A DNA stretch of 64,000 nucleotides from assembly GCA_965113315.1 (NCBI GenBank), contig OZ220368.1, one strand, 5' to 3'. Shown in pieces: positions 11,536-55,723 of this stretch. A program made the translations under genes and the position numbers. Under the pieces are notes generated by a model, which was not told the origin of the DNA, did not search any database, and saw only the letters and a list, made by a program, of their open reading frames with translations. Each line of letters opens with the position of its first letter. Positions within the stretch are counted from its first letter, which is position 1. This DNA is from Podarcis vaucheri. Its lineage: Eukaryota.

Positions 11536-11569
11536 TATATAGGTAGGTAGGTAGGCATCTAATATAAGC

Positions 11570-20363: not shown

Positions 20364-21071
20364 ACTCAGAGTATAACTAACATTGCACACAACCCAGTCT
20401 TTTTATACCAACTTCACTTTCCTGTCCCCCAACGCAGAGAGACCTAGTAGGATCTCTAATGAGACAGAGCTCCCAATGTGTCAAATCAAAACTAAAGATG
20501 TTTAACCAAACAAGACATGCTGTTGCAAACGGAGGCCAAAACAGACAAAGAAGGAATTTATGTGACAGATGCCTGCTGCTTTTGTTTGAGAGATGAAAGA
20601 CGGACACATCTGCTAGTCTTTTTTTTTTTAAGGCTAAAAATCATTTCCCTTGTTAACCGCAATGCATAAGAAAGAACAACTGGGCACTGCAAAAGGAGCA
20701 CATTGCTACAGTTACTGCTAAAAAGGATGAGCATCAAATGTAATATTGGTTCCTCTCAGGGCTATGCATAGAGAAAAGAGAGCCAATAGATATGGTCGTT
20801 TTAGGCATGGGCAGGGGAAGCAAGATGGTTTACTTTTATTCTGCCACTGTGCCTGCTACTCACTTAAAAAAAAAAGTTCAAGTTATTTACATATGAATGG
20901 CTGCTATAAGCAAACAAATAAAGCAACATCTGTAAAAGGACAGTATATTTACTTATGATGAGCATAAACAAATATGTGTTCACCTATGCATTGCAATATT
21001 TTAAGCATCACTAGAAATACCAATAAACTTAGGTAGCACCCACAGCAGGTTTAAAATGTAACATGATTTAC

Positions 21072-21391
21072 CTGTGGTGGAAGTTCTCACTCTTGTGGTT
21101 TTTCTGGAAATACTCCCCTATAACACCTTGCATCAAAGGTTCTTGGGGTCGATGTGCTTTGGAGTATGGCGAAGTCCCCATGTGGCTAAAAACATCACAG
21201 GGTCCAACAGGAATGGTCCCTTTTTTCTTCCTCGGAAGGGTGCCATGAATGGAAACATCTTGACAGGTATGGGAGCGATGGTCTGCCAGAGATGGTTTGC
21301 TGCTCAAAAGGTCCATAGAAGATGCCAGCGAGAACTCATGGCTCATCTGCATATTTCTTGGGAGACTTGCAAATTTCCCAGCTGCTATCAT
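21072..21391 (-). CDS. BCAR3: BCAR3 coding exon 2 (exon 21399-21072, 328 nt; ATG at 21391)
   Basis: Translates to MIAAGKFASLPRNMQMSHEFSLASSMDLLSSKPSLADHRSHTCQDVSIHGTLPRKKKG...FSHMGTSP. This matches the recalled human BCAR3 N-terminus MAAGKFASLPRNMPVNHQFPLASSMDLLSS...QDVSIHGTLPRKKKG. Acceptor ttttgttttctag|AATT at 21399; donor AG|gtaaat at 21072 (phase 2). Confidence 0.97.
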
Positions 21392-24300
21392 TCTTAATTC
21401 TAGAAAACAAAAGTTGTGCATGGTGGAAGTTAGAGAAACACCAAAGCTAACTTCTTGGATCAGCGTAGGCTAAATCAGGGATCAATTGTTTCTATTCAAG
21501 TTGCTCATGTATATTAGATTCATTAAGGAAAAAAGAAAGAGTATATCCCTAAAATTAAGGGTTGGCAACTGAGAGCTCTGAAAGCAAGAAAGGCTGCCAC
21601 AAATATACCCAGTTTTAGATTCTAGTGTCCTGGCTTTCACCACAGTAGCTGCTGTGACTTCCAAGCCAACATTGCACTGGCAAGACTTTGAAAAAATTTA
21701 GATGGAAGAGTGTAGTTGGAATAGGAATAACATGGGCAGCTGTTGATAACCGCTCAGTCATCCCTGATAGCTACTTATAAATGTAACTGAAAAGTCTGTA
21801 AAACAAGAGGGAAATCTGCAATAGTAGTGTCAATGGCTACTATTGCTCTGATATCCAACGTGACAGCAGCTCAGCTCACCAAGCTACCATTGTATACTGG
21901 TCTCATCCACTGGCGTAATATCTTACACAATGCTTTGCCAGTACAGTGGTTTATAGGATTGGATCAATATGCATGACAAGACCCAGGGCTGGAGACTCAA
22001 AACATACACGTGAGTGTTCGGAAGGATTTATGGAGGTTAGGCTGTTATTACCGAAAACATTTATCTTTCTAATTGTTTTTTAACCCCCAAGTTTTTAAGC
22101 AGGTCAAACATCAGCCAAGAATCATTAACTACAGCTAAGCTGTCAGAAGAGACTGATATTGTACAGACTATCCTCAATTTAAGAGATTACAAATCTAAGC
22201 TCAGCAAGGGGTGCCATTTGAAAAAAATTTCTTTAGTGCTGCAAGAAAGCGGCTTGAGAAGCAAAGGTATGCTCATGTATCTAAATGCCTGCCAACAAAA
22301 AATGCACGCACATGCTTGGATTGTGAGTTCCTGTGAGCAAAACTCTGCTCATGGGATGTTCCCTCCAACGTAAGTGGGGGAGGCAATTTTCAGATTCTCT
22401 ATCCCCTTGAAAATCTGTAGGGGCCCTTCCAGAACAATGAAGTGGGAATGCAAGGAAAGGAGGAATGGCAAAAAGTGTGTCCCTGTCTTCTACCTATAGG
22501 AGTCTATGCTGGATCAAAATACCTTTGACAAATGGAATGAGACTTTCTCAAAAACGTGCAGCCAAGGAATTGCAGTCTTACAACAGATATAAATAGGGTG
22601 CACAAGCAGGCAAGGACATAACAGAGGTGTCAGTTGCAAGCATCCAAATGCCAACACAAATCAAAACATCCGAGTGAAATTAATGGAAGGCAGGGATAGT
22701 TGTGGACCACACCAAAAGAAATAATATCCATATCTGAGTTCTGGGCTGGGGGAAAAACCTGTAGCATTTATCCCATGGTAAAGTTAAGTGTTCTCAGTGT
22801 AAATGGTACAAATAGGTCACAAAATTACCTTCTCGTATACTTTTCTCATATGTTTCTCATACATGTCTCCTCATCTCTACTATTTGTAGCTGTTGCACTC
22901 TATTTGCATTTACCTAGGAGTAAACCCCATTGAACTAAATGGAACATACTGCTGGGTACACATGTACAGAATTACACTAAGAGGGTTATTTATATTCTGT
23001 GTTATTCCCCTTAAGGTACACACTCCTGCAACACTTTATCCTAAAAACACTATGGGTGGAATTCAATGTCACACTATGTTGAACATCCCACCTGTGCAAG
23101 CATATTAGCTTGCCAGTTGAAATTATCCCCCTTTCCCTGGTTTTCTGGGGGTTTTCATGAGTCCTCCTCCCAACAAGCCAATTTCAGGAGTGTGTGGAGT
23201 GGAGCCCCTTTGAGCAAGCCCAAACCCTTCAACCAACAAGGTTTCTTAAGTGAATCCTGCCCTGTGGTTTTATGTAACCCTTACAGGAGGCTCAAGAAGG
23301 AATCTTCCTCCCCCGGAGGGAATTCCCCATGCAAACCAATATCCCAGCATGAAAACATCCAAGACATGCTTCCTAATACAGGCAACCAGCATAAAATGTT
23401 CAAAGATATGGCTTTTTGCTGAGCCTAAGCAGTTGTAGAAGTTGTTCACTACACAGCTGGGAGATCTCAAAATGCCTTAAAGGATATAGCATTAAATTCA
23501 GAGATGAGTACTGCTGAAAAAGCAGATTTGCTGGGAAATATTCTTTTCTTCTTTCTCTGCCAGTGTCAGCTCAGTCAACCAGCTTCAAAGGTTGGATCAA
23601 GATGCTGGAGGGGTTTATTACAAAAAGATATGGAAACAAGTTTTGCATGCCTTTGCTGAAGTGCGATCAACTACAAAGCTTCAAACTCTGAGAACTAAGG
23701 TCACTTGGTACAATTTTTATCTAGGAGTTCCTTGATGTCCCCAGTTACAGCTACCAACTTTTGAACCAGCCTCCAAAATAACACCATTTATCTCCATGCT
23801 TTACAACTGTTCACACCGATTTCTTCAATGTTAAGCTGCTATTTAAAAGGCACAAGTGATATCACAGGGTATTTTTCCTGATGAGTTGGCAACCTGGTGA
23901 TGAATCAAGGTGTGGACTGGGAAACCCACCAATGTTGGTTGAGTAGACATGCTTATACATTCTTTCCACGTTATTATTTTCATCAAGAAAATGACTACAA
24001 AAATAACCCTAGGAAAGTGGTTTTTTTTCTGTTTTCCTTAGAATGTTAGAGTAAACAGAATAAATGCAATGTAAGGAGCCTGTTGGATAATGATTAATGT
24101 GTGTCATTGTTAATCAGTTTCGGGTCCATTCAGGAAACCAGCAGGTATGAAGTACTACAGACGCACGTCAATCATCAAAACTCTGGTTGTTGGGCACACC
24201 CACAGGGATAGACTGGAGTGACATCACTGCTTAGGTACTACAAACCACAAGAAAAGTTATGAAGCAGACTGTTAAATCTTCTTGAATGCCAGTACTGTGG

Positions 24301-26696: not shown

Positions 26697-28037
26697 ATCT
26701 AACTGTTCTATGGTGCCTAAGGTGTCTCTGGCTCCTATTCCCTACTATGACCTGCTTCAGTTGTGCCATTATTAGAGTAAAGCCAAATGGCTTTCTATAC
26801 TGATCCTAAACATATTTATTTCAACTGAGCCTCCAAGTTTAGGATCACAGAATTTTAATGAAAATATAGATTCTGAAAATCATGAGCTCCCTACAGATAA
26901 ATGACATTGATTTTTTGAGCCATTACTCTTCTGGATAATCTGTGAGGAAAGATTAACTGTCTAAACTTTACTGACCATATTCTGGTCTATATACACCCAG
27001 GCTCTAGAGATCAACTTCTCTTCCATATTTTGGTCTAATGAAGATGCCTGTGCAAGAATATCAGTTAATATTTCTATCAATAGAAAAGGCTGAATAGCCT
27101 GATCTAACCTAAGTTGGTTTGCATTTCTGCTTCACAGGCAGAGTCTTCCAGTATACATAGGCACTGCAATGAAGAAATCCAAGGCTTGCTTTTTCCTTTT
27201 TTTGACAAATGAACCTTTGAAAAAGAATACAAAGGGACTGTGGAACACACAGCCTGATAAAGATAAAAGATTATCTGGAGGGAATAAACACACCAAAAGC
27301 AAAAAGTCTGCTTAATTCCATCACCAACAAGTGTGTCTGCTAATTGTCAAAACTTCAGATATCAAAGGGTTCCACCTTTGTGTAAAGAACACAAGAAGAA
27401 CCCTGGACCCTTCCAGCCCAGATCTAGTCCAGCATTCTGTTATTACTGTGACCAACAGATGCCTATGGGAAGCCCACAAGAATAACATGAGTACAATAGT
27501 TCCCCCCAGAACTAGTCTATGGCGCTACATCATTTTTATAATTAAAAACGCTGACTCATCTTTAACATACATTATGAACATCTGAATGCGCATTGGAGCT
27601 GCTTCCCATGACGACAGCATTGTGCTGAATCAGCGGGATGAGCATGGCAACTTCATTTCTACCCCAAGCCAAAAGTGAACACATCTGTGGGGGTAGCTCT
27701 CAGTTGCCTGAGCGAACTCTTTCTTTCTGTCCTTTTTTTACTCATTACTCATGCCGAGCCAGCCAAAATCGTAAGAATTAATGATTTATTTTCCAAGTAA
27801 TTTTAGAGCCAGTGCATAGCCCAAAAGCAATCTATCTTACAAAAGGAAAAGCCAGAGCAGCAGCACGATACAAATAATTGAGTCACCCAGTGTGAAAACT
27901 TTTATTGTAATGGTTATGAATGTATTTGGTGAGGCTTCCTAGGCAGGTTAGGGCAGGAGCAGACTTCTCTCCCATTCGTACGCAGTCACATTTTTGTCTG
28001 TGTTACCTCTACCCTTCATTCTCCTCCAACGCCAGTA

Positions 28038-28429
28038 CAGTGGTGCCTCGCAAGACGAAATTAATTCGTTCCTCAAGTTTTTTCTTCTTGCGAGTTTTTC
28101 GTCTAGCGAAGCACGGTTTCCCATAGGAATGCATTGAAAATCAATCAATGCGTTCCTATGGAGACCGTCCGGGGACAGAGGGGAAGCGCCGCGGGCCTTC
28201 CCCTCTATCCCCGGACCTGTTTTAAAGCAAGGGAAGGGGCAGCAGGGAGAATCGCTTCTCCCCGTTGCCGCCCCTTGGTTCAAAAGGGGTGCGGGGTGCG
28301 GGGGCAAGCTTCGTTTTGCAAAGCAAGCCCATAGGGAAATTCGTCTTGCGAAGCAACTCGAAAACGAAAAAACCTTTCGTCTTGCGAGTTTTTCGTCTCG
28401 CAAGGCATTCGTCTTGCGGGGCACCACTG
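28038..28429. mobile_element. Tc1/mariner MITE
   Basis: TIRs CAGTGGTGCCTCGCAAGACG / CGTCTTGCGGGGCACCACTG; TA TSD. Confidence 0.9.
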
Positions 28430-28612
28430 TATCTCAACCCCAGGACACCTTGTCATTGAGCTCTGGCGCTAATAAATTTGTGTATCTTCTCTGGTGTTGC
28501 ACTGACCAACAGTACTGAGAACCAACAAAGAATACACTTTTAATCCGACTTTTATTTTGGGGTAGCTCTTTTCTTGGGAACTATACAATAGATCTCTGGG
28601 GAACCTCTAATA

Positions 28613-28940
28613 CAGTGGTGCCCCGCAAGACGAATGCCTCACAAGACGGAAAACTCACTAGACGAAAGAGTTTTCAGTTTTGGAGGTGCTTCGCAAAACG
28701 AATTTCCTATGGGCTTGCTTCGCAAGACGACAATGTCTTGCGAGTTCCTGCTGGTTTTTTCCCCTTTCCCCCCCTTTTTCTAAGCCGCTAAGCCGCTTAT
28801 CAGCTGATCCGATCAGCAGATAAGCCGCTAAAAGCCGCTAATAGCGCTAATCCGTCAATGGGCTTGCTTCGCAAGACGAAAAAACCGCTAGACGAAGAGA
28901 ATCACAGAACGGATTCTTTTCATCTTGCGAGGCACCACTG
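28613..28940. mobile_element. Tc1/mariner MITE, same family, opposite orientation
   Basis: Same TIRs and TA TSD. Confidence 0.9.
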
Positions 28941-31215
28941 TAGATCAATGACAGGTTCTCCTGTTTTGTGCTGTTATTGGCTACAATTGCTCAATTGGCA
29001 TTTCAGCTTTTCCCATCCACCGATTAAAGCATCCTGGGGAAATATTCCTCTTGAAGAACAGACCTTAAGTGAGGCAGAACAAAATACCTGATGAAATCAC
29101 ACCACAGCCCTCCCAGGTAATGAGGGTATGCCAAAAACTGCTTTGACCAATTCTGCACCCTGAAGTGAAGCCTTTTCTTGCCTTGGAGAGAACTTGATAA
29201 GATCGAGTTTTAGAATCACAGTTCTTAACACAGCATGGCGCAAAGGCCTTTTCCACTGGTATCTCCATATGCCTCCTGCAGTTGCTTCTAAAGTCAGGAG
29301 ACCATCCAGAGTGGGATTCAACATGCAGAAGCTTCTGTCAGAAAACAAAATCAGCAACCCCTCTCCCTACAAGCCTAAGCACCTTTTGCTCATTCATATG
29401 GGTGTTAAGATCCCTAAATCTATTAACTGCCATATCTTAACTGTTTTATATAACTGTTTTTACTATTATACTACTTTGATGTGAGGCTACCATGCAGGTT
29501 GCTGATCAAATTACGTGGTCCATCAACACTGGAGCAATTGGAGCTCCTAGGCAAATTACTGGACCTACATATTCTTAATATGAATTATTCCTGTCAATGG
29601 GATTCTATATGACTGTCACATTAAACCATATGCATCTCTTTTGAGAGTGAATTTAAAATACACTTCCAAACAACATTATACAGTCAAAAAGCAACTAATA
29701 CTATTTAAGAAGCTTCCTGCCACTTTTACTGAAATACAATCATTTATTTTTAATCCATTGATTGCTTAAAAACAGGCCCTTAACTTAATACGTTCTGCTG
29801 ACAGCTCAAATAAGAGCTAATAAGCAGATTTCAGAGAGGAATGCAATTCATGATTTACCTCTTTTGATCATATTATATGACTCTTTGTGAAAGGTTCCCT
29901 CCATATTGAAGGAAGGGAACTACATTTAACCTTCTCAAATAGCATGTCACTCAGTAACATGTCAAGATATTTTACAGAAGGGATGATCAACCTTTCAACA
30001 TCAGAGCTCCAAAACCCTTAATTCCTATGTAGAGAAAAATGAATTTTGGACAGATGAACTTCAGTCACGCCACAGGGCTGAACAGCTTAAAAAGCTGCAC
30101 CTTCCAAAATATCCTCTTTTATACAACTATGAAAGTACAGGATCCCTATTGCTGAAAGGTTGGTCATCTCTGGTTTAAAGTGAGAGCTCTGTAATTCTTA
30201 CCAGTTAACAAGCAGCAAACTCCCCAGTCCAGTGCATGCTTACTCAGCTGTTTATTATCAGATTTACTTAAAGGTAAGGGCAGATTCTAAAAGGACCGCT
30301 ATGTTAGTGTCTTGCAATAAAATCAGACAGAACAGCCCAGTGGCACCTTGAAAGACTTAACTAATTTACTGTGACATAAGCTATTATCTGCCTTGTCAGA
30401 TGCATGAGAGAGATCATGAAAATACTACGCAGACAAAACAGAGGCCTGGTTTGCACATAACACTACGTCATGGTTTGTTTAAGCCAGGGATTGCTTAAGT
30501 GTAGTTTTCTAGATGTTGCTGGACTGCAGTTCCCATAACCCTTGACCATTCACCAAGTTGACTAGGGCTGATGGGAGCTGGCACTCAACAAAATATGGAG
30601 GGCCACAGGTTCCTCACTCTTGATTTAAGTCGTGGCTTGTTTAACAAACCACAAATTTCCTCACATGATTATATTCTAGCTTGTTTCTCCAAGGTTTCTT
30701 TTGTTTTCCAGCCGTTCTCACATTTTGCCTTTTATTACTTGTTGAGGCTCTGGTGTTGAGTGGCCAACAAACCATAGTTAACGGTGCTGGGTTCCTGCAT
30801 GATGCCAAGCAAGAAGGCAAACACAGTTTCATAAGCAAACAAACCATGGCTTTACACTGTGGTTTGCTGGTGGCAATTGTGGTAAGCTTCTGGGCAGGAT
30901 TCTCACGTAACACTAACCCATAATTTAATAAGGTATAGCTGAAAAAACAAAGTTTACAGTTAGGTGCTAACCAGGCCAATCAGTCATACATCAACAATCT
31001 TCACTAGCTTCATTCTCACTAAGGTGGTCAAAGGGAAAAATCTGCCATGTGAGTCCCCAGCAGGAAATATGGCAAGATGCTGCCCAGACACAGTCTAACC
31101 ACCTCCGTGAGGACAAGCAAGCTCTAGTCCAGAGGTGGCTAATTTATAGGCATCAGTTCCCACCATCCCTGAACATCAGCTGTCTGGAGGGGCACGTGTT
31201 AGTGACCTTCTACCC

Positions 31216-31351
31216 CAATGTTTCTCAAACTTGGGTCCCCAGCTGTTGTTGGACTACAACTCCCATCATCCCTGACCACTGGTCCTGACAGCTAGGGGTG
31301 ATGGTAGTTGTAGTCCAACAACAGCCGGGGACACAAGTATGAGAAACACTG
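31216..31351. mobile_element. Short palindromic hAT-type MITE
   Basis: TGTTTCTCAAACTTG...GAGAAACACTG with an internal GGACTACAAC / GTTGTAGTCC palindrome. Confidence 0.7.
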
Positions 31352-32373
31352 CTCTAGTCCATTAAAGACTATGGCAAAATGTGCTAAGTCTTTAAGGTCC
31401 CACAAGACTTTGCCGTTTTTACATCCAAGTATGCATAATTAAGATTGCAACCTTAGTAAGGACTCAAATTGGACCTAAAAAAAATTAAACCTAGTGACCA
31501 ACTAAAAAAAGAAAGAAAAAGTCCTCTGCCTCTCTTTTGCAACTAAGCAGACTTTTTTCTTTTCTTCTGCATGTCGAGTCCATCCATTGTCCTCCCACCA
31601 TTCCGTTACCATGATTTCTGAGAGTTGTCATGGATATGCATGTGAACTTTCCCAGACTAATAACTTTCCTAAGAGTAAACCTAAACACCCTTTTTTAAAA
31701 TAATGGACTTCTAGGGAAATAAAGAAAATGAGAGAGAATGAATCCAGCCCAAAGTGGTTTATTGATGTAATCAAAGTATGTTTTTATTTACTCATCCAAT
31801 TAAAACAGCCTAACTATGTAGTTAGCAAAAGTGGAATGTATTTCAGGTACAATCCAGAGTTATGGACATCCTTAAATGTCTCCCAATGGAATACAAGAAC
31901 TTTAAAACACTTAATTATGACTAGATTGGATACACCGTTGTCATTTTTCTCATTCCCTGCCCCATCCCCTAATCCTCTATTATACCTTCTCACACCATTC
32001 TTGCAATGTAGGCTAGGCTGCGAGATCAAGAGATCCTCTTGATTACTGCATCAAATGCAGTTTCAGTTTTTGCTTTGAAAAAATATTAAAAATTGAGTGG
32101 CATCTTTTCTCTCTCCCTCTTTACCAATCTCAAGCCATTTCCTTGCCTATCTAACCCAACAGCTCACACCGGCTCCACAGCCTCTCTGTCTCTTAGTAGC
32201 TTAAGATTCACATCAGTTCTTCACAAAGAGAGAGTTCAGGGTGAGTCATATCCAGAGAAGTGGGCTTTTCTCATCTCCCTTCCTCCTCTCAGGGACAAAC
32301 ACAACCAGCTATTCATTCTTTGGCCAAACAAAGCAGGAGAACAATGTTGTCAGCAGAGTTACACAGGCAGCCC

Positions 32374-32841
32374 ACTTCTCACTCTTTACTAACTTTCCAA
32401 AACACATTAGTTAGGAAGCCAGCCCCATCCTAAAGTCCTGCCTTCACTTAAGCCTTTGCCCATATAACACCGCCAAGGCTTCCTGAGCCGTTCAACAGTA
32501 AGGTAATTTTGGTGCAAATCAGTAAAACGAGTGAAAGGGGTTAGGTTAGGGGGAGAAAAGCAACATAAATTTAGTTAATTCCCAACTATAAGAATAAAAT
32601 TCTATTTGATAGGACTCCTAACTAAAGAGGTAAAAAATTTTTAAAAGGCCAGCACATTTTAGAAACTTACTTTAAGAGGAATGTTTTGTACATCAATGCC
32701 AGTTGTGTCTGCTGAGAGAAAATCAGCTGGGATGCATAATGGGCAAATTCCATCACATTCTTACTACCATAGTAACCTGTTTTTTAAACAGACACACTTG
32801 CCTTTTACAACTCAAAATACGCAATTGCTGGCAACTCTTTA
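32374..32841 (+). repeat. Left arm of ~468-bp inverted repeat
   Basis: Reverse complement of 35983-36449, with about 15 differences by manual alignment. Confidence 0.95.
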
Positions 32842-34203
32842 ATAAAAGCTCTCTATTATTAACATCTTTCTAGTCCAAAGGAATCCCTGGTCAAATTAAG
32901 CAAAGCCAACATAGTGGAGAGCACAAGCGTTAGTAAACATCTTAAAGGCATCTGAATAAGCAGCTTAACCCTTGCAGAATACCGTATACACTGCAAACAT
33001 TAGAATCTGGTATACTGGAGAGACAAGTTGGCACTGAAAAGTACAACAGAGCTGGTGATAATTATGATTATTGTTTTCTGAAGCACTTCATGGTACTTTA
33101 CCAAATACAGAAGGGCAGGTCCTCGCCCACAATGAGTTTACCATACAATCAAAAATTCAACACATGAAGACAGAGAAAGGAGAGTGAAGTGGAGGCAAAG
33201 GAGATGTGCTTGCTGCTGTTACACATATATAGGCTTAGGCTGCAAACACACCATACTTTTAAAGCACATTCACACACACCCCAGAACAAAACACATCTTG
33301 GGAACTGTATGCGCATGCGTTTGTTATGCGTGATCAACATTGTAGCTCTGTGTGGAGCTAAACTACTGTTTCCAGGATTCTTTGGGACATAGGAACGGTA
33401 CACAGGCGGTCCCGTAAGACGCAGGAAGTACAGTATTATATACCTATACACTGATGAATCACAGAAAGAAATTTAAAAGCTCTTAAAAGACCATCTCCAA
33501 CCTCCTATGCCAAGGGAAGACAACCCACCAACTTTGACTCTCACTGGTAGTTCCAACAATGCAGAATGTTACAATAATAAGACAAGTGGATTAAGGAAGG
33601 GGTGAAAATCAGTTATGAATATTTTACCATATTATCCAGGATAATCTTTGACAACTGAATTTTTAAAGATATATTATACAATCATTCCACACGCACACAC
33701 CTTCTTTACATATTCAGACTACCAGCTCTAACTCTAACACAATTAGTAAGCCACATCATGTGTGCTATTTGCCAAATGTAAGTCAATCTTAGACGTTTTG
33801 TTATTTACCAGTTATTTGACTTTGTACATTTAAGTTAGCTCCATTCAACGGCCTTTATATTAATCTTTTTTTGGGGGGGAGGGGGAGAAATAAACATGCC
33901 ATATCTATATACATGTATCAGCCTGTATTCACAAGCACTAAACCATTGATTACGCTCTTCACTTTAATGCCCCATCAACATGACTCTAACGTGTGATGAA
34001 AAACCCAACCTTTCGCTCTCCCTACTGAGGTTATGAAGGGAACTGTTAAGTAATCTGCATTCAACAATCTTGTGTAGCCTTTCCATAGAAATCAATTTTG
34101 TTCCCCAAAAGCATTCTCTTCTAAAACCTGAGTAGGCAATTTCAGAATGGAAGCTATTCCTCCTAACTACAAACCAACCAGCATTCCTCTTGATGTAGTA
34201 GCC

Positions 34204-34527
34204 CAGGGGTAGGCAACCTAAGACCCGGGGGCCAAGTGTGGCCCAATTGCCTTCTCAATCCAGCCTGCGGATGGTCCGGGAATCAGCGTGTTTTTAAATA
34301 AGTAGAATATGTCCTTTTATTTACAATGCATCTCTGGGTTATTTGTGGGGCCTGCCTGGTGTTTTTACATGAATAGAATGTGTGATTTTATTTAAAATGC
34401 ACCTCTGGGTTTTTTGTGGGGCATAGGAATTTGTTCATTCCCCCAAAAAAAATAATAGTCCGCCCCCCCCCACATGGTCTGCGGGAAGGTGGACCCGCCC
34501 ATGGCTGAAAAAGGCTGCTGACCCCTG
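34204..34527 (-). mobile_element. hAT MITE (family A)
   Basis: Reverse-oriented homolog of 12496-12812; perfect TSD TAGTAGCC. Confidence 0.9.
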
Positions 34528-34647
34528 TAGTAGCCAGAAACCCTGTGCGCACTTCATGGCGAGTCTCGTTGGATCCGGTAGGGCTTACTTCTGAGTAAAC
34601 ATGCAACATGGGCCCGGACTACACACAGCCTTCTTTCTACTCCCGTC

Positions 34648-34674
34648 AATAATAATAATAATAATAATAATAAT
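34648..34674 (+). repeat. (AAT)n microsatellite
   Basis: Read directly. Confidence 0.9.
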
Positions 34675-34849
34675 GATGTAACAAAAACTCCAGCTCCGCA
34701 AACCTTAAATCAACCCGGCGTTCTTTTTGCTGTTGCATCGAACGGAACTTTCCTCAAAAGAATACACCGGCGTGTATTTTTATTATTATTATTTTGGAAA
34801 CCAACCACCCTGCTCAAGTTTTTCTTTCATCGCTCTACATAACCAAAAA

Positions 34850-35340
34850 GGCGCCACTCTTACCTCAGGGGATGCTGCTTCGCAGCGCTGGAAGGGGAAA
34901 ACTCGGCAGCCGCGCACTATTCGCCCCAATTTGGGCAGCCGGAGAGACTTAGCACGCCGCCCCGCTCGTCGGGCGCGGGTCCACCGCAGGTTCTCTTCGG
35001 GCTCCGTCGTTCACCTTCAAGCGGCTTGGCCGGGGCAGGAGCGCTGCATGGTTCCCCGACCGCTGAGCCGGCGGTAGTGCTGCTGCGAGGCGAGTTTCGC
35101 GGCTCAGGCAAGCAAGCAAGCAAGCAAGCAAGCCGCCAACCAACCCCGGGCGGCGCGCGCTGCAAACTCAGGCAGCTGCAGGCACGGCGGCCAAGCCCCA
35201 CACGAGGCAGCGCCGGCGCTCCGGGAGTGATTGAGCGCCGCTCCGCAGCCACACCCCTGCGCCGCCGGAGCCCCCTCCAGAGGAGCTATTTACATACGGT
35301 GACCTCCCGTTGCCCTTTGCCGCGTCGAGAACTTTTCCTT
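34850..35340. promoter_or_regulatory. CpG island / proximal BCAR3 promoter
   Basis: High GC and CpG density. GC-box-like CCGCCCC near 34956. TATTTAC (FOX-like; TATGTAAATA on the minus strand) at ~35287-35296. Confidence 0.85.
34864..35260 (-). other. BCAR3: BCAR3 non-coding first exon (5' UTR); TSS approximate
   Basis: Lies in the only strong non-TE CpG island. Consensus donor CTGAG|gtaag at 34864. An in-frame TGA sits immediately before the junction, so translation starts at the exon-2 ATG. Confidence 0.8.
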
Positions 35341-35859
35341 TAGTCCTCCCCATAATTCTTCCTTTTAAAACCAGCTCCCTGAAAAAGTCATGATTTACTA
35401 CTTCCTAAAGGCAACCTTTTTTAAAAAAATATTGCCGCTAGGTCAGGCCAGGCTGTTAAGCGCAGCTGATTTCATTAGCTTGAGCCCCTCCCTTGACTGG
35501 CATCCAATCTTCCCAGCCATAGTTTGTGGTGGGTGGTTTTTTTTCCCTTCTTGTCAAAAACTATTCACCATGTCAGCCAAAGGGGCCCGCATACCAGCAA
35601 ATAAGCACGCTTAATTAAAACAGCAGGTGAGGAAAGCAATAAACAAGACAGCCCTCTCGCCCCTGTGTGATTTCATCCTTCGCCAGGCTTAAGGAGAAGA
35701 GAAATTTATACCACCGCCCACCAAATGTGGATATCCGACGGGTCAAACTGAGCCGCAATACTGGCAGCCTCCAAATGGTCATATTATTGCCATGGTTTGA
35801 AGCAAAGCCGGCCCTAACATTGGGCAGGATTCAAGTGGTCCATCTATAACAGTGCATAT

Positions 35860-35976
35860 ACCTGAATCCACCCCCATTGTTCAGCCCGGACACTGAGGTC
35901 CAGCTCCGAGGGCCTTCTGATTCCCTCACTGTGAGAAGGGAGGTTACAGGGAACCAGGCAGACAGTCTTCTTGGTA
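35860..35976 (+). mobile_element. L2-type fragment, truncated at the inverted-repeat arm
   Basis: Reverse complement of part of 48745-48870 (TTCAGCCCGGACACTGAG..GGGAACCAGGCAGA). Confidence 0.7.
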
Positions 35977-35982
35977 GCTTGG

Positions 35983-36449
35983 TAAAGAGTTGCCAGCAAT
36001 TGCGTATTTTGAGTTGTAAAAGGCAAGTGTGTCTGTTTAAAAAACAGGTTACTATGGTAGTAAGAATGTGATGGAATTTGCCCATTATACATCCCAGCTG
36101 ATTTTCTCTCAGCAGACACAACTGGCATGAAGTACAAAACATTCCTCTTAAAGTAAGTTTCTAAAATGTGCTGGCCTTTTAAAAAAAAAATTACCTCTTT
36201 AGTTAGGAGTCCTATCAAATAGAAGTTTATTCTTATAGTTGGGAATTAACTAAATTTATGTTGCTTTTCTCCCCCTAACCTAATCCCTTTCACTCGTTAT
36301 ACTGATTTGCACCCAAATTACCTTACTGTTGAACGGCCCAGGAAGCCTTGGCGGTGTTATATGGGCAAGGCTTAAGTGAAGGCAGGACTTTAGGATGGGG
36401 CTAGCTTCCTAACTAATTTGTTTTGGAAAGTTAGTAAAGAGTGAGAAGT
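35983..36449 (-). repeat. Right arm of ~468-bp inverted repeat
   Basis: Reverse complement of 32374-32841. Confidence 0.95.
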
Positions 36450-37780
36450 TGGTCAGCTCATCCCTTCTCCAGCCCCTATCATATCACAAACTGCTTTTGA
36501 AAGTCTCCTCGTTTTCAATAGAAGTTTGCCTTGCAGCATGAAAAACTGCCCGTTCCGAAATTCAAGTGCTTATAAATCTAGTTGCTTGGATCCAGGCCCA
36601 AGGCATGTTTTGGTAATCATGTGGAAAATGTGATTATATGGCTTAGCCAAGAGGGACTCTCATCATTAGTTGCCATTCGGACTGAGCTGGGACTAGAGGC
36701 ATACCTGGGCTTGCTTGCACCTTTAGCAAGGCGATGTATTGGCACGAGTGCAAACCCATCTCCATTAAAAAACATGGCGTAATTCACAATCACAAATGAC
36801 CCTTAAGCTGAGCATTTAACAACGCAATCCTATAAATGTCTACTCATCAAGTTCGTTGGGGTTTACTCCCAAGAAGCTAGGTGCATAGGACTGCAGTCTA
36901 AATCTAGCAAGCCAGAGGTAGGAACTTCAGACAATACCTCACTTGCCTTCTCACTTCTGACGAGGTGCCAGAAATAAGCCCCACTTAAGTCAATGGCCAT
37001 TGCTCTCTGGGGTCTTGGGCGGGCTGCCCCTCCGCCAGATTGCTTGATCAGGTGCCTTTTCCAGTAGCACCAACTGTGACTTGTTGGGAAAATACAACTG
37101 GGCAAGACAGCTGGCCAGCAACAAACAAGCATCTAACCAGCATCAGGTCAGAAGGGCAGCAATTGGCAGACGGCAACATCCATGTCCAGTGTCTGCCACC
37201 TGAAGAACAAACCATAATACTCAGCCACGGTTTGAAATTGGCTTAGTTCAATAAGGCACAGTTAACACTAGCCACAGTCTGAGCTTGTTTGGACAGAATG
37301 CTAAATAATGGTTTAGTAAGCAGGCTTCAGGCTTAGAAGCTCCCCTCACATGGACGTGAGGAAGAAATCTGAATCTTTGGCTTGTCTGTTACTCACTATG
37401 TTGAAACCTGGATAAACTGTAGCTAGTCTTAACTTTGATTTAGGGAAACATGCCGACTTCAAACAACAATTCACAATCTTCTTTCCCTAAACCATTGTTT
37501 GCGGTTTGGATAAATCATGGTTAATTTAAAATGGAAGCAACTGCTTCCAGACTCTCTGTCATACATGTGCTGATGGAGGGAGAGTACCTGAAACTGAGGT
37601 AGTTTAGTATTTTGTCTTAACCAGATCATTTGTTAGGCATGAGAAGTTGTGGTTAGTTAAAAACAGCAGAAAATGCTTCCAATTTCCTCTAAGCCGTGCT
37701 GGAGGAGGATGGGGGCATATGGGCCTGAGGTTTGTGTATGTAACACTAAACTATGGCTTAGTGTTGTATCTAATACAGTA

Positions 37781-38023
37781 CAGTGGTACCTCGGGTTACA
37801 TACGCTTCAGGTTACATATGCTTCAGGTTACAGACTCTGCTAACCCAGAAATAGTGCTTCAGGTTAAGAACTTTGCTTCAGGATGAGAACAGAAAATTGT
37901 GCTCCGGCATGGCGGCAGCAGCAGGAGGCCCCATTAGCTAAAGTGGTGCTTCAGGTTAAGAACAGTTTCAGGTTAAGTACAGACCCTCGGAACGAATTAA
38001 GTACTTAACCCGAGGTACCACTT
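37781..38023 (+). mobile_element. Tigger-like MITE (family B)
   Basis: TIR CAGTGGTACCTCGGGTTA; TA TSD. Confidence 0.9.
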
Positions 38024-40034
38024 TATATAATTTTCCATATATGTATATTTTGTTATTTTGCAAAACTATGTGAGTACACTTTTTAAAAAAACTCCCTAAG
38101 AAGAAACCATTAATTTTGAGATAAGACAGCCACAGGCAGCCTCACCCAGAAATAGAAGGACTTTCTTTCTTTTTAATTCTAGGAATTACTGTACAGCCTT
38201 GTTTATTCATAAGGCAAGGAAGAGATATAAGAGTCTTTCAGATAGTCATGCTTTCTGATAAAGCAGAGGGTAAAGTATACATTACATGGGGAATGTACTA
38301 TTAATATATAATGCAAAATAAGATAAAATTAGAATTTTTAATAGCCCTTTCTGATAAGAAAAGTTCTACTGTCTTGTCATGTGTTACTCTTTTTTGCAAA
38401 TAGTTCCTGGAATAGCACTCATCAATGTGGTCTTGCAGGAAGAGAACTGAATTTGGTTCTGGGTTGAAATTACACATCTGCCATGACCTCAAGTATGTGG
38501 CTTTGGGCAAATTACCGTAAGTATATTTCAGCTTTGTTTGAAAAGAGCATAATAGTGACTATCACCTACCTCTCAGGGTATTGTGAGGACAATCAGTAAA
38601 GTATTTTGGGGAAGGGAAACAAAAGAATGAAAGAAAGCAAAATAAAAGTGTCTGACTTGTTCACTAGAGGCTTTGGCAGTGTTCTATCAGTCTTCTGCAG
38701 CCCAGAATTATAAGGAACTCCAGTTCATATTGTCCTGTACCGCATGGGCCTTATTTTCCATTCAATTAGCTGTAGACTTTGTTTCTAATAATTCATTCAC
38801 ACACTTACCCAGCTAATTATCATTGTTCTGTAGTGGAGGGAACAGGCAAGCATGTGCACCTTATTCTAGTTTAGGCCTAAACACAGAAGTCCAATTTGCA
38901 TGATCCTTCCTCCTCATTAAAAGGAGGGAAACACTGCAAGAATTAGATCCATGGACTGGAGTTCACCATGTGAATATATGAATCAGTTCCTTTCACTGTG
39001 TGAATATATGAATCAGTCCTATTATATAATCTCTGTGTTTGGTTTCTGGGATTAAGCTAAATGCCTATCAGTAATTCATTCTTTTATATGTTTTGGACAT
39101 TTCTATACACCTCATAATCTAAAAGAATTTGTGTTTTCAGATTTTCTGCTTCTTATTCTTATTCTTATTCTTGCTACCAATTCCTCAAAACTCCCACACT
39201 GCCTCAGAGTTGCCTCTCTCTTTCCTTGAATGTTGACATTCTGCAGCTGTGTTGTCTTCTGTAATCCCCAAAAGTTTTTCTTAACATTGTTCTATTACTT
39301 TCTTTCCTTTGTCTGAGTTCATAAACCAGGAGCTCAAAGGCTTTCCTGCTACTACATTGGTAATAATTCTGCCTTAGCCAGCAATTTATATTTCTAAATA
39401 AAACAATGGTTTTAAAACAAATACTGTTCCATAACTTTTGTCAGGAGTCTTGACTGCTTTTTAGATAACAATATTTTTTAACAACTTCTATTCCAGAACC
39501 TGTTGTGTTTTCATCTTTCTCTTCATCGCAGAAAGCTATTCCAACGAATGTTTTCTTCTCAAGCTATAGCTAAATGACTACAATCAAATTCAAACTGTGT
39601 AGATCTGTTGACTCTATCTCAAGGGTACCATGATCACAATGATTATTTTAAAACAAACTGTGGGTGAACATAATAATTGTGTCAACCAGAAATCTTAAGA
39701 GTCAAGGGTATGTGAAAGGCACACACTGAGCTGGCTGAGACATACAAATCTTGGCTTTGTGCCTGTGTGCTCCATCCTCATGTTGCCTCTTCCCTCCTCA
39801 GCCTGCTCAGATTATATTTATTTAAACCGTAAAATATAGGATACAGCATAGACATAAAATAAAACATTTCTTAAATAGCATCAAAATAAAACCAAAACCA
39901 AACCAGCAAAGGGAAAGCAGTAGTACCAAAGATCTGCAAAGCACTGAAATGCTTAAAAAAAAACAACAGCTGTAAAGCCTGGAAATCTCATAGTTGTAGA
40001 GTTGGAAGGAAACCCAAGGGTCATGTATCTAAAC

Positions 40035-40160
40035 CAGGCATGGCCAAACTCGGCCCTCCAGCTGTTTTGGGACTACAATTTCCATCATCCCTCCTGTTAA
40101 CTAGGGATGATGGGAGTTGTAGTCCCAAAACAGTTGAAAGGACAAGTTTGGCCATGCCTG
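40035..40160. mobile_element. Palindromic hAT MITE inserted in a CR1-tail SINE
   Basis: TIRs CAGGCATGGCCAAACT / AGTTTGGCCATGCCTG; TSD ATCTAAAC / ATCTAATC. Confidence 0.85.
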
Positions 40161-42507
40161 ATCTAATCCAACCCCCTCCAATGCAGAAATCTCAACATGT
40201 GGTTCCCCATCCAATTTTAAACCATGCCAGACTCTGCTTAGCTTTGCAAATGTATTAGCAGTTTCATTGCTGCACCACTCTTCACCAGGTGCTGAAAGTA
40301 CCACAATGTAGACACAAAGCAAGCTTCTTTGGGAAGAAAATTCCACAACCAGGGCACAACTGAAAAGGTTGTGGAATTTTCTTCATAGACACACCCATCC
40401 AGAATGCAGGTGGCTTCTATTAACTGCAGTTTCCTGTTACATCTGAACCAGAAAGCCATGGTTACCAGGTTCCCAAGCAGTCAGAATCTGAAACCACAGT
40501 TTGAACTTGACTTAAGATCCTGCTTTGTTCTGACACTAGTAGCCATGATTTCCCAGTTTGGACATAACAGGAAACCCATGGCTAATGGAAGATTTCCTGG
40601 GTTAATATCAGCGTGCTGAGTAGGAAAGCATTTTTTTCTTATTTTATAATTCCTCTTTTTGCTGTCTTTCCTTTCAGACTATCAGGGTCATTGAACAGTA
40701 GATTGTTTTCACTTTAACAGGCTCCTGCCTCATCATCAAACTTGTCACAGAAGTGAGAGCAGCTGAGAGGCAAGGACAATTATTTCAAGATAACAAGATC
40801 CTGACAGCTGATTCCTGCTGTAAGAATGTTATAAATACAGTCACTCACAAGGGCAGTAAAACAGATGAAACCACTGGAGAGTATATTTAATTCACCTCAG
40901 GTGTCACCTTTCCTCTATTCTTTCATCTCCTTTGCATCTTAGCCTAAAATATTTATTGTCTTTCCTTAAGTCTTTTTTTTTTTAACCCAAGTGATCTAGA
41001 ATTGGATCAAACACTCTGTTTTAATATTTCCAGCAAAAAAATAAATCAAAGTAGCTGAAGATTATAAACTGTAAATTTCAAAGAAGTACTGAACTAAATA
41101 TGGAACGTAGACAGAAATTACCTTCAAAACATTCATCTGCAAAGGAAAGAGGAAGCACCAGTGGATTTGGAAACAAAGGGATGGAAGGAGGGCAAATAAA
41201 ACTTATCACTAAGATCATAAGACGAGCCTGCTGGATCCGACCAAAGGTAGGTCCACTATCCTGTTCTCAGTGGCCAACCCAATGCCTATGGGAAGCACGC
41301 AAGCAAGACCACAGTGCACCAGCACTCTGCCCAACAGCTCTTCGGAAACCTGGTGCCTCCAGCAGCAGAGACAGAACACAGTCATGCCACCACTTGTGGG
41401 TTCAAAATCCAAAGTTTAGCTGTGCATGAAGAAGTACATTCTTTTGCCTGTTCTGAATCTTCCAGCATTCAAGTCCAACTAGGAATTTAACTCAACGCTT
41501 TTTTAAAAAAATGGGAACTACATTGGGCCGCTTCACAAATTCAACTGGCTTGAGGATTACCATGGTCGATAGTGTAGGCATAAATAAGGCACTTTGTAAA
41601 CTGGGTGCTGTGGGATGAAAGCATCCCAAATGCGGAGTAAAAAGGGTCAATACTCACAAGGGCTATAGAACTGTGTGATGTCATATGCCTGAGGCAGTTA
41701 TTTCAGTTGGTGCAGTTACGGAAAGTCTTTTAACAGTTTGAGCAGCAGGTATGTTCTGTTGTGCTGCTGCCTGCCTCAGAGTTAGTCTGTATTTATCTTG
41801 GATGCACATCTATGTAAGATGTCTTGGCAACATAAGCAACGCCTATTTGCGTTGTATATTTTACTCTGCAAGTGCAAGTACGCTAAGTAAAATGTATTTG
41901 TTCTTTAAACTTTAAAAGAGAGCACCTTGCGTAGTTTTTGTACGAGGGAAAAGGGAACTAATTAAAGGGTCAAACGACCCAGGGAACTAGAGTTTAAATG
42001 GGAACTAGAGTGTAATTCCCACAGGTGTGCCATACACAGGCCCAAGCATACATAGACTTGAATGGCACAATTTCCTCCCACCCTTAGGGAGCAGGAAGAA
42101 CCATATGCATTGGACCTCCATAAGTACAAGACGGTGGCTGGAGTGCCCGGTTTATGTAATGTCTTATATGAACCATGGGGAGAAGTGACTGTACCTGCTC
42201 CTTCCACTACAGAATGCCAGTCCCTAGCTATGTCAGTGTGTAAGCTGAGCTTTCGCCCCCACCATGCAACACATTTCTGTTATGTTTTTTGGGGATTCTC
42301 CAAATCTTAGCTGGCCTTGGTAGCTAGCCATTATTTGTGGTTCTCTCAACCCTACCCTACCTGAGTTCTCTTGCATACTGAGAGTATTCAAGGGAATGGA
42401 AGGGCCAGCTATTAATTTTGTAGTGATATTTGCAAGTGTTCGGAAGTAGCAAAAAACCACAGATCTTGTTGCTTTCAATCACCTTAAAAGGATGGCATAT
42501 AGTAGGG

Positions 42508-45481: not shown

Positions 45482-45549
45482 ATGGAACTTCGAATGAGAA
45501 ACATGATATCTTGCAAGGATAGAAATTGCTTCAGTTTCTTCCAGCAATA

Positions 45550-45782
45550 CAGTGGTACCTCTGGTTATGTACTTAATTCTTTCTGGAGGTCCGTTCTGAA
45601 ACTGTTCTTAACCTGAAGCACCACTTTAGCTAATGGGGCCTCCTGCTGCCGCTGCGCTGCCGCTGCACAATTTCTGTTCTCATCCTGAAGCAAAGTTCTT
45701 AACCCGTAGTATTTCTGGGTTAGCAGAGTCTGTAACCTGAAGCGTATGTAACCTGAAGTGCATGTAACCCGAGGTACCACTG
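45550..45782 (-). mobile_element. Tigger-like MITE (family B)
   Basis: TIRs and TA TSD; reverse of the 37781 copy. Confidence 0.9.
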
Positions 45783-46307
45783 TAATACAAAATAAGCAAT
45801 AGCTTTTCTTTGTGTGTGAAGATGTCAGTGATATTTTTGACTCAGTTTTGTGATGTCCACAAAGATGTGGCTCAGTAGGGTTCTAAACAGAAAAGAAATA
45901 AGGATACAGCTGGAATCTTCAAAGGATAGGGTAGTAGAGTCATTTGTCTCCTCATCCCACCCCAAATGGAACTTCCTTAATGACATACAAAAGCCAGAGC
46001 TGTTTGTTTACATTTTTGGCAACTAGGTCTACGCATTCAGCTCTTCTAAAAAAAAGGTAACAAGATGGTCTAGAAGTCTCCAGTTCTGATAACTATGAAA
46101 GGTAGCCAGAAGACCACACTGGTACTGATAGAATATTTGGATGAATAATAATATGGAAGAGTTTGAAGTGGAATGTTCTGTCGGCTGGCAAAGCTACTGG
46201 AGGGCTTGGCTCCAGTCTGCAATCTGCAAATCAGAGCCAATCAAACACACTCTTGCAGTGATAGTGAGGATTTTAAACATTATCAGAAGAACAGGCAATG
46301 ATCACTA

Positions 46308-46549
46308 CAGTGGTACCTCAGGTTACATACGCTTCAGGTTACATACGCCTCAGGTTACACACTCCGCTAACCCAGAAATAGTGCTTCAGCTTAAGAACTT
46401 TGCCTCAGGATAAGAACAGAAATCGGGCTCCGGTGGCGCAGCAGCAGCAGGAGGCCCCATTAGCTAAAGTGGTGCTTCAGGTTAAGAACAGTTTCAGGTT
46501 AAGAACGGACCTCCGGAACGAATTAAGTACTTAACCTGAGGTACCACTG
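46308..46549 (+). mobile_element. Tigger-like MITE (family B)
   Basis: TIRs CAGTGGTACCTC / GAGGTACCACTG; TA TSD. Confidence 0.9.
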
Positions 46550-50144: not shown

Positions 50145-50305
50145 TAAAATTGTCCAGTAGCACCTTAGAGATCAACTAAGTTTGTTCGGGATATAAGCTT
50201 GCTTGTGCATGCACATTTCTTCATATACTTAGTTGGTCTCTAAGGTGCTACTGGACAATTTTTAAATTTCAACTGTGTCAGACCAACACGACTACCTACC
50301 TGAAC
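50145..50305. mobile_element. Penelope-like fragment with inverted terminal arrangement
   Basis: AATTGTCCAGTAGCACCTTAGAGA..AACTAAGT followed by its reverse complement; homologous to 9108-9238. Confidence 0.65.
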
Positions 50306-50538
50306 CTCAGAAGGTGGACGAACTACCAAGAAGGCCCCAATCTGCCAGTCTTAACTTTCCAGAGTGTCTGTAAGGAAGGAGATGATCTTTCAGACATTTG
50401 GGGCTTGAGTCATTTAGTGTTCAAATGTGAGTACCTTGAACTGACCACGGAAATGAATTTGCAGCCAGTAACGAAATGTTTGTTTTAAATTCACCAATAA
50501 GACTGACAAATTAATTTTAGCTAGAACCTACTTCTTAC

Positions 50539-50653
50539 CATCTTTTCTTTCTGTTTCCTTAAGGAGCAAGATGTTAGAAAGGATGTGTATCTGGTGGATT
50601 TGATCCTTAGCTCCCATTTTCTTCAGTTCAGCTTCTGTCAGGTGGAGCAAATC
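50539..50653 (-). CDS. BCAR3: Putative upstream BCAR3 coding exon encoding the C-terminal half of a SAM domain (DLLHLTEAELKKMGAKDQIHQIHILSNILLLKETERKD)
   Basis: Acceptor cttcttttttgttgggccggttccag|GAT, donor GATG|gtaag. 115 nt, open, phase 0 to phase 1. SAM-like pattern (DLL-L-E--LK-MG-K...H...IL--I). The phase-1 end splices in frame to exon 2 (G|AA TTA AGA ATG = E-L-R-M). Confidence 0.8.
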
Positions 50654-51769
50654 CTGGAACCGGCCCAACAAAAAAGAAGATGGTTGAGAAAATATTAACT
50701 TTGTTCATTTTTTAAGAAATAATATTCTTTTTAAAAAATGATCCAACATTTTATTGCAATAAATTAAAAGCATCCAGAACATAATCCCAGAACATAACAA
50801 ACACTGCTCATTTTTCCATAGGTACTGCTAAGAATTAACACCTAACAAATGAATGTATTGCCAAAATACAATGCTATCAAAAGGTTGTTCTTCAATAGCT
50901 AATTCTTGTTACTTATTTGTACCACCCTCCTAACCATTTGAAAGCACCGTGAGAAACTCTTTTAGTTCATTATCACTTTTCACTTTTCTCTCTCTCTCTC
51001 TGCCTTGTCTCTGAGGATCATTAAAAGACACATTCTTTGGAATTTACTTTGAGGAAGGAGTTCTTAACATCCAGGTCTATTGGGGGAATTTTTGTTTGTT
51101 TGTTTACAAGAACTGGCATCTAAGCTGTAGGGCCATAAAACACAGACCACACCATTTAATTACTGTCAGTGTATGGCAAAAAACCACCTGCAAGCAATTT
51201 CTATTTTAAATTGTGCCATGATCTGAAAAACCTAATTGTTCCCACCCAGCCACCCAGAAGTTGGTGGACTGGACAAAAGAGCTGCCAATTCATTTAGGAA
51301 ACACCCTCCACTTAATTTTCTTAACCTCCATGACCTGTAAAAAGCTGGAACATGATGGTAGACTTGCACATTTGAAAATGTCTAATCATTTAGTATTATA
51401 TTTTACTATAAAACCTTTGTGTGGCACAGGGTTGGGAGAAATCTCAGTAAGGAAACAGCTTCTAAAACTGTAAGATAGTTCATAGATAGAAGAATGACCT
51501 CAAGCACTGAACAAATCCATTGTATCCAGGATGCCACACTAGTCAACCAAGGAGGAACAGTTAATTCCTACCTTCCTACCCCCTCAGGCAAAGGTTCTGG
51601 TCTATTTAACTATGAAAGCACTTCTGTTGTGCATACTGTATTATCTTCCAGTTTGCTGTCTGTGTGAACTCAATCTTTCTCTTCTTCAGTTGTATAGTGC
51701 AGCCTTTTGTGTGCATCTCAAAGAAAGAAACATGCTCCAACCCAATGCTGCACAATGCTGACTGCCTAC

Positions 51770-55300: not shown

Positions 55301-55465
55301 TTATGTGGGTGTCTGAGCCAAACCTTGGTTTTCCAAAGCTCCTAATTATTAACATGTTTTCTGTCTCCTCTCCTGACTATTTTACCCGCCACCCACACAC
55401 TCCTGTTTTATGCAAAGACGTTAATGTCCTGTACAGATCAATTGGATTCAATGAATTTTACTGTA

Positions 55466-55723
55466 CAGTAGTATCTCGGGTTAAGTACTTAATTCGTTCC
55501 GGAGGTCCATTCTTAACCTGAAACTGTTCTTAACCTGAAGCACCACTTTAGCTAATGGGGCCTCCTGCTGCGACTGCGCCGCCAGAGCACGATTTCTGTT
55601 CTCATCCTGAAGCAAAGTTCTTAACCTGAAGCACTATTTCTGGGTTAGTGGAGTCTGTAACCTGAAGTGTATGTAACCTGAAGTGTATGTAACCTGAAGT
55701 GTATGTAACCTGGGGTACCACTG
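55466..55723 (-). mobile_element. Tigger-like MITE (family B)
   Basis: TIRs; internal TATGTAACCTGAAGTG repeats. Confidence 0.9.

Follow-up and report, generated by a model that had tools for sequence, protein, structure and literature searches.

We analyzed a 64,000-nt stretch of the Podarcis vaucheri genome (contig OZ220368.1 of assembly GCA_965113315.1; hereafter the window), in which two arms of less than 0.5 kb lie in opposite orientation on either side of a CpG island and a probable first exon of BCAR3. We consider it likely (with a probability of about 0.7) that this inverted repeat is a one-off local inverted duplication of a 468-nt piece of a BCAR3 intron, i.e., an ordinary copying accident that happened to enclose the promoter. 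The promoter probably lies between the arms through proximity and not by design, the spacer appears to have kept a fixed orientation and to owe no function to the arms, and flips of the segment would be rare mutations knocking out one of several first exons rather than a regulated switch. A reading of this DNA made earlier from its letters (the sequence-only reading) had proposed an invertible promoter cassette. We found nothing in support of this proposal, and it is common in the window for inverted pairs to enclose exons, whether real or predicted (10 of the 12 pairs of at least 100 nt do so).

Geometry, identity and copy number of the inverted repeat

When the left arm (468 nt) is globally aligned to the reverse-complemented right arm (467 nt), 453 of 469 columns (96.6%) are identical, and the arms are separated by 3141 nt, in agreement with the arm coordinates and the ~97% identity given by the sequence-only reading. 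A local alignment adds 3 nt outward with one mismatch (32371–32841 and 35983–36452), and its BLAST E-value of 0.0 excludes a chance origin of the match. The arm pair has the highest identity among the 15 repeat pairs of at least 100 nt in the window. The differences between the arms amount to 11 events (nine isolated substitutions, one of which adjoins an indel of a single nucleotide, as well as one 1-nt indel and an A/T run that has changed shape), and the longest perfect run, of 106 nt, is found at the inner ends.

No third copy of the arm was found in the window (the next best match has E=0.61 with permissive blastn, and 0.71 with nhmmer --max), and the arm has no match among plasmid sequences. 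Inspection of the arm ends revealed neither terminal inverted repeats, nor a TG...CA pair at both ends, nor an A-rich tail; the earlier statement that the arms lack transposon termini and further copies in the window is thus borne out by the arm ends and by both search programs. An 88-codon frame confined to the arm yielded no candidate among 5.8 billion proteins. A frame covering the arm plus an adjoining fragment of a long interspersed nuclear element (LINE) yielded five HMMER hits among 1.84 billion representatives, four on the LINE part and one on the arm part. An Rfam scan of positions 30000–39000 gave six weak matches, all below the gathering score and none within the arms or the spacer.

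The pair resembles the human variants termed Inverted Dup (Sudmant et al. 2015, PMC4617611): both are shorter than 1 kb (468/467 nt here) and have copies in opposite orientation within 5 kb of each other (3141 nt here). The lizard arms show no tail, no long terminal repeat (LTR) ends and no third copy in 64 kb, and a 5-nt flanking repeat is present. Out of 229 characterised human sites of the inversion type, 54% were inverted duplications, nearly all of them shorter than 1 kb and at most 5 kb from the other copy, and they were ascribed to replication errors and not to recurrent rearrangement (PMC4617611). The human variants are polymorphic, their copies are nearly identical and their single-copy allele is known, whereas the lizard pair has aged to 96.6% identity, its single-copy ancestral allele is a presumed one, and it encloses a CpG promoter. 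The lizard pair is also like the opposite-strand non-tandem duplication with deletion described by Frith and Khan, in having microhomology-like junction words and a probable loss of target sequence; their 166 local rearrangements include 21 opposite-strand non-tandem duplications, plus 6 with target deletion (PMC5829575).

Polarity of the duplication and structure of the junctions

Three lines, each of them modest, point to the left arm as the native source and to the right arm as the pasted copy: the LINE fragment has its cut end at the right arm, the direct repeat TTGGT occurs only there, and the strand skew seen in the introns of the gene is shared by the arm where it stands on the left and reversed where it stands on the right. 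The coordinates of these and other features are listed in Table 1.

The LINE fragment matches a longer copy near 48.7–48.9 kb in 105 of 132 columns (a match reached by 0 of 500 shuffles), and the translation of this longer copy matches reverse-transcriptase-domain proteins of Podarcis and Zootoca (9 hits); the element is putatively of the L2 clade. According to an anchored test, the LINE homology ends at the inner junction of the right arm: 19 of 150 shuffles were as good as the continuation into the arm, and 150 and 72 of 150 as good as those beyond the arm, as compared to 0 of 150 for the control. A permissive alignment had hinted that the inner end of the arm continues the LINE, which the shuffles ruled out (81 of 500 in the local test, besides the 19 of 150 in the anchored one). 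Of 8 comparisons seeking the LINE remainder in the outer flanks or at the start of the spacer, 7 gave no significant match; that of the remaining one (36450–37450; 12 of 500 shuffles), about 625 nt off the junction, was taken as chance.

TTGGT stands on both sides of the right arm, and neither the left arm nor the cassette as a whole is flanked by a direct repeat of this kind. The claim of the sequence-only reading that the arms have no target-site duplication therefore needs correction for the right arm. As for strand skew, the log-odds of the arm are +3.4 to +4.1 at the left site and −2.0 to −2.8 at the right site, and under models of orders 0–2 none of 69 cross-validated 468-nt pieces was as negative as the reversed arm.

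The junctions contain several words that are consistent with template switching, a mechanism suggested by matches found post hoc and uncorrected. The 8-nt word ACTCTTTA (candidate microhomology) begins 7 nt in from where the arm ends on its outer side and recurs as the last 8 nt of the arm, and all four of its matches in the window lie in the arms. An 11-nt word located 250 nt outside the left arm equals, as reverse complement, the sequence across the junction of spacer and right arm (35979–35989), and is a candidate first template of a serial switch. A 12-bp inverted repeat (32255–32266 and 32369–32380) reaches into the left arm at its outer end and closes the fold predicted for 32250–32390 (whole fold −15.6 kcal/mol), which is a possible template hairpin.

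Taken together in one path, break repair or a stalled fork about 0.6–1 kb upstream of the CpG promoter would have been the starting event, after which a DNA end would have moved over to the other strand of the intron, 3 kb off, and would have been joined back to its own locus after copying 468 nt. The broken end may have primed near 32127, shifted via a 7-nt microhomology to 32841, and copied to 32374, where the hairpin could have stalled it before it rejoined. The 3' part of the old LINE fragment at the target site would have been lost during the event or before it, and the spacer would have kept its original orientation throughout, with the arms diverging freely since then (about 2% substitutions).

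Several observations weigh against this account. Antisense transcription upstream of a promoter could turn the skew round near the promoter, the skew is weaker upstream of the promoter (63% of 30 pieces are positive), and under an order-3 model 9% of the pieces are as negative as the reversed arm. A 5-nt target duplication together with a simultaneous deletion misfits one simple event, and the null probabilities of the junction words and of the direct repeat are post hoc and uncorrected across the several features examined. The test for an even spread of arm differences (see below) draws on only 11 events. One HMMER hit, a repetitive one, fell on the arm part (E=5.6e-6, 38% identity in 10 stretches). 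The ends of transposons, already truncated, often coincide with the edges of rearrangements, so that the LINE may have been cut earlier (PMC5829575), and repeats 5 kb apart have recombined with matches shorter than 50 bp (PMC2583991).

Table 1. Features of the inverted repeat and of the BCAR3 region in the window (positions in the window; null probabilities where calculated)
Feature	Position	Strand	Basis
Left arm, unique-looking BCAR3 intron, probable source copy	32374..32841	+	alignment; skew with the gene; no flanking direct repeat
Right arm, copied in inverse orientation; probably inserted as the derived copy upstream of the CpG promoter	35983..36449	-	abuts the cut LINE; skew against the gene; TTGGT flanks
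Spacer, 3141 nt: 5' part of intron, 71-nt-repeat element (about 34204–34528), exon, CpG island, upstream DNA, LINE fragment	32842..35982	.	
Lacertid reverse-transcriptase (LINE) fragment, ending at the inner junction of the right arm	35857..35982	+	
TTGGT, 5-nt direct repeat around the right arm	35979–35983 and 36449–36453	+	null 0.011, post hoc
ACTCTTTA, 8-nt word, candidate microhomology	32381..32388 and 32834–32841	+	null 0.00075, post hoc
11-nt word, reverse complement of the spacer/right-arm junction	32117..32127	-	null 0.0027, post hoc
12-bp inverted repeat that reaches into the left arm at its outer end	32255..32380	.	null 0.009
CpG island, probable internal BCAR3 promoter (putative activity)	34600..35400	.	
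Probable non-coding first exon, 5' end approximate	34864..35300	-	donor and ATG scan
ATG exon of BCAR3, not part of the cassette; presumed partner in splicing	21071..21400	-	
Exon encoding the latter half of the SAM domain, not part of the cassette	50543..50656	-	Pfam SAM_2 E=3.9e-5; tblastn with Anolis isoform

Divergence of the arms

The spread of the 11 difference events is compatible with an even one (Kolmogorov–Smirnov p=0.29, with low power at 11 events), a clean run of 106 nt is expected often enough (P=0.61), and the excess of outer over inner events (8 versus 3) gives p=0.23. The substitution divergence of the arms, 1.9% (confidence interval, CI, 0.9–3.7), is about equal to a crude divergence of 1.7% (CI 0.5–4.3) between the window and Podarcis muralis, calculated from four predicted exons under loose constraint, with 4 of 105 residues differing (left out were an older model of one exon with 3/21, a Podarcis raffonei exon in a differing frame, and the constrained ATG exon with 0/107). 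Therefore, free divergence of the arms after a duplication within the Podarcis radiation, whose major splits are dated to about 16.7–9.8 million years ago (PMC8114931), would suffice. The sequence-only reading had offered recent duplication or ongoing gene conversion for the high identity of the arms; the former is supported, and the latter finds no backing in a test of low power, as the differences show no clustering.

Could the segment flip?

A crossover between the arms is predicted to move the donor from 34864 to 33960 and to aim the promoter toward higher coordinates, which is the flip geometry that the sequence-only reading had described. The same reading had the flipped promoter fire antisense toward the SAM exon, of which the direction stands and the functional claim goes too far: the exon found encodes only the second half of the SAM domain, it is 14.1 kb away from the right arm, and the stretch between the two contains 14 AATAAA words on the plus strand. 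It had also expected a flip to silence the short SAM-less isoform. Predicted isoforms of Podarcis have other 5' exons outside the cassette (at 41562–41624, about 50.3–50.4 kb, 56324–56392 and 63076–63147), and the first two of these are predicted alternative first exons of SAM-less forms, which a flip would leave in place.

With 468 nt and 96.6% identity, the arms pass the thresholds for being compatible with non-allelic homologous recombination (NAHR; at least 200 bp, >90% identity), and they fall short of the range in which NAHR is efficient or recurrent (468 nt versus a minimum of 654 bp, and a perfect run of 106 nt versus 134–232 and 300–500 bp). All figures used for this comparison are mammalian and are applied here to a lizard. 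The NAHR-compatible call, made at repeats >200 bp with >90% identity, covers 132 of 183 resolved human inversions, recurrence is mainly set by repeat length (23 of 32 recurrent inversions have repeats of at least 10 kb), and recurrent inversions arise at rates of 3.4e-6 to 2.7e-4 per generation (10.1101/2021.12.20.472354). The 654 bp are the smallest repeat among 24 human NAHR inversions, for which the repeat-to-spacer ratio correlates with inversion frequency (PMC6748972); the inversion repeats in Table 1 of another study span 1.6–32 kb (PMC3961182), and repeat size scales with inversion size (PMC6044046). In mouse, intrachromosomal recombination went down 20-fold when uninterrupted identity was cut from 232 to 134 bp (PMC2583991). 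The arms are a weak substrate for ectopic crossover, and flips should therefore be rare.

It is quite unlikely, in our view, that arms of the same origin drive recurrent ectopic inversion, as germline toggling or somatic mosaicism, with conversion keeping them alike. Their length and identity (>200 bp, >90%) are compatible with it, the arm-to-spacer ratio is 0.15 (the kind of ratio that correlates with inversion frequency; PMC6748972), a short distance relaxes the demand for homology (PMC2583991), and the perfect 106-nt run sits at the inner ends. Yet the arms are shorter than the smallest NAHR repeat of 654 bp, the repeats of 1.6–32 kb and those of the recurrent inversions (mostly at least 10 kb), the perfect run is shorter than the 134-nt case with its 20-fold loss, the 11 events carry no conversion signal (with low power), and a flip would remove the promoter, which is likely selected against. 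Slightly harder still to credit is the full scenario, in which the internal promoter and first exon of BCAR3 toggle by recurrent recombination of the arms, giving an on/off allele or a somatic mosaicism untagged by single-nucleotide polymorphisms, and antisense transcription into the upstream first exons. If true, it would provide a naturally reversible promoter knock-out allele from an unusually short repeat in a vertebrate, and sub-kilobase inverted duplications would seed recurrent regulatory inversions.

Alternative explanations for the arms

The arms could also stem from a mobile element, of low or high copy number, that was inserted twice, or inserted once and then copied locally; it would measure about 445–470 nt, a length typical of solo LTRs or of miniature inverted-repeat transposable elements (MITEs). 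An 8-nt direct repeat (9 nt at the right site) around a 445-nt core in both arms looks like a target duplication, as does the 5-nt repeat flanking the right arm. However, the 8-nt terminal repeat is internal and common to both arms, which share the 8-nt words and 7 nt beyond them, unexpectedly for independent insertions; the left arm has no target-site duplication, and terminal inverted repeats, a TG...CA pair and an A-rich tail are all missing. Moreover, no third copy is found in 64 kb, though other lizard elements recur in the window, and HMMER found the neighboring LINE and nothing with the arm-only frame (a weak argument, since non-coding elements are poorly represented in protein sets), and we regard the element as very unlikely. 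Staggered breaks leave inverted duplications at inversion breakpoints, as known from Drosophila inversions, and one of the junctions here looks novel, so the arms might be the scar of such an event, with the spacer inverted once, or inverted and then reverted. The exon and its donor point in gene sense, though, and the rest of the LINE, expected beyond the left arm, is not there (467 and 223 of 500 shuffles as good), which makes the scar highly improbable. The strand skew of the spacer was considered as a test of its orientation history; it is strongly gene-like, yet uninformative since the spacer has its own promoter. An assembly artefact, caused by reads that are chimeric or fold back or by haplotypes joined wrongly, is in our judgement just as improbable as the scar: some arm differences are in homopolymer runs (32455, 32634–32637 and 32695), as such an artefact might produce, against which stand nine isolated substitutions, 3.1 kb of unique sequence between the arms, structured junctions, and the lack of a plasmid match.

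Other explanations concern what the arms do. At the RNA level, and compatibly with a local inverted duplication, the arms could pair in read-through transcripts and loop out the CpG exon, leading to ADAR editing or a splice change. The predicted duplex has 456 of 467 nt paired (−823 kcal/mol), and distal exons exist upstream, so that both arms would be in one intron. Such a duplex is nevertheless obtained in silico from any near-perfect inverted repeat, many inverted pairs derived from transposable elements lie in the same introns, and neither arms nor spacer have an Rfam match; overall we find this effect unlikely. Bacterial invertible promoters (Salmonella Hin/hix, and Escherichia coli fimS with FimB/FimE) have short conserved sites and a dedicated recombinase. 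What the lizard segment shares with them is the geometry, a promoter between inverted repeats; instead of short conserved sites it has long degenerating arms with evenly spread differences, and no recombinase family was found in the 115 of 248 minus-strand open reading frames (ORFs) scanned (113 above 35.4 kb plus 2). A literature search found no vertebrate invertible promoter with inverted repeats either, and the chance of a programmed, recombinase-driven promoter as in bacterial phase variation is close to nil.

Comparison with human inversions

The human inversions that toggle by NAHR (PMC3961182, PMC6748972, 10.1101/2021.12.20.472354) are like the lizard segment in that repeats of >90% identity flank a short segment with a promoter and first exon. 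Their repeats range from 654 bp up to tens of kb, and each of the two orientations has been observed, whereas the lizard repeat has 468 nt with a 106-nt run and is known in one orientation. In one of them, HsInv0030, the first exon together with the promoter of CTRB1/CTRB2 is exchanged; this inversion swaps a promoter between paralogues, as described, while a lizard flip would disconnect the promoter.

As best explained, i.e., as a local inverted duplication, the lizard pair is of small import, being one more aged case of a frequent mutation class, now in a lizard. Several Podarcis and other lacertid assemblies exist, which makes it a tidy test case for age, polarity and stability. No earlier report of the lizard BCAR3 repeat was found in the literature, judged by titles and the openings of abstracts.

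BCAR3 promoter, first exons and SAM domain

A minus-strand ORF at 21071–21391 is the start of BCAR3, 100% identical to the proteins of P. raffonei and P. muralis, and the predicted 5' exons of the window differ slightly from the references of these two species. As the sequence-only reading had found, the spacer holds a CpG island, a probable exon 1 and its donor. The island (about 34.6–35.4 kb) has a CpG observed/expected ratio of 0.6–1.4 and a GC content of up to 0.69 in 200-nt windows, and a donor scan gives the canonical minus-strand donor GAG|GTAAGA at 34864. From island and donor, the CpG exon appears to be transcribed and used as a first exon; it carries no coding sequence in frame with the ATG exon. 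In human BCAR3, several non-coding first exons are spliced to one ATG exon and give the same protein (PMC11083344). The lizard gene is predicted to join alternative 5' exons to one ATG exon in the same way, and the accessible part of the human report mentions no inverted repeat.

Nine N-terminal extensions (from 16 isoform proteins of reptiles and birds) have no significant match to the CpG exon on either strand (best: 28 of 300 shuffles), and were dropped as proof of its conservation or orientation. The probable first exon contains an upstream ORF of 10 codons (35049–35017, minus strand, by translation) and a GCAA tetranucleotide run (35108–35133); this run and an AAT run just past the donor (34648–34674) are possible length-polymorphic markers. 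An acceptor-like site lies 24 nt before the exon-1 donor, making a micro-exon possible (34864–34887, minus strand), and in the SAM reading frame this putative micro-exon holds a stop and would act as a poison exon.

SAM-containing forms of BCAR3 are annotated in anoles, geckos, turtles, crocodilians and birds, and a whole SAM domain was seen in none of the 15 listed lacertid members of a cluster (of 19 members; the N-termini of 13 lacertid members were inspected). A profile of 19 named SAM N-termini, run against the window's 4149 six-frame peptides, did not recover the first half of the domain, and its best other match (E=2.4, 33750–33830, plus strand) was taken as chance. In one P. muralis model the SAM half-exon is joined to unrelated sequence. 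The start of the full SAM isoform may lie outside the window, or this isoform may have been lost or decayed in lacertids. We note that a predicted first coding exon of P. raffonei (50301–50402, minus strand) is out of frame and contains a stop in this genome, and the isoform model with this exon is probably not conserved here.

Other repeats in the window

The arm pair is distinctive only in being unique sequence, and closer and more alike than the other inverted pairs in the window. Another inverted pair, of 238 nt and 92% identity (46315–46552 and 55463–55700, 8.9 kb apart), brackets the SAM exon and belongs to a four-copy family of small transposons, with the other copies at 37776–38064 and 45543–45784. 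Short palindromic elements are found at 31221–31351, 11562–11700, 40027–40165 and 52416–52604; in a comparison with microRNA-hairpin families, the palindrome at 31.2 kb stays below the gathering score (best mir-5408, E=9.9e-8), and these are probably MITE-derived hairpins. Two further regions are rich in CpG: a transposon-like element at 28036–28955, with nested inverted repeats and 16-nt repeats, mimics an intronic CpG island, and a GC- and CpG-rich region at 60885–61571, with internal repeats and long open frames without a Pfam match, is probably transposon-derived and not a distal promoter.

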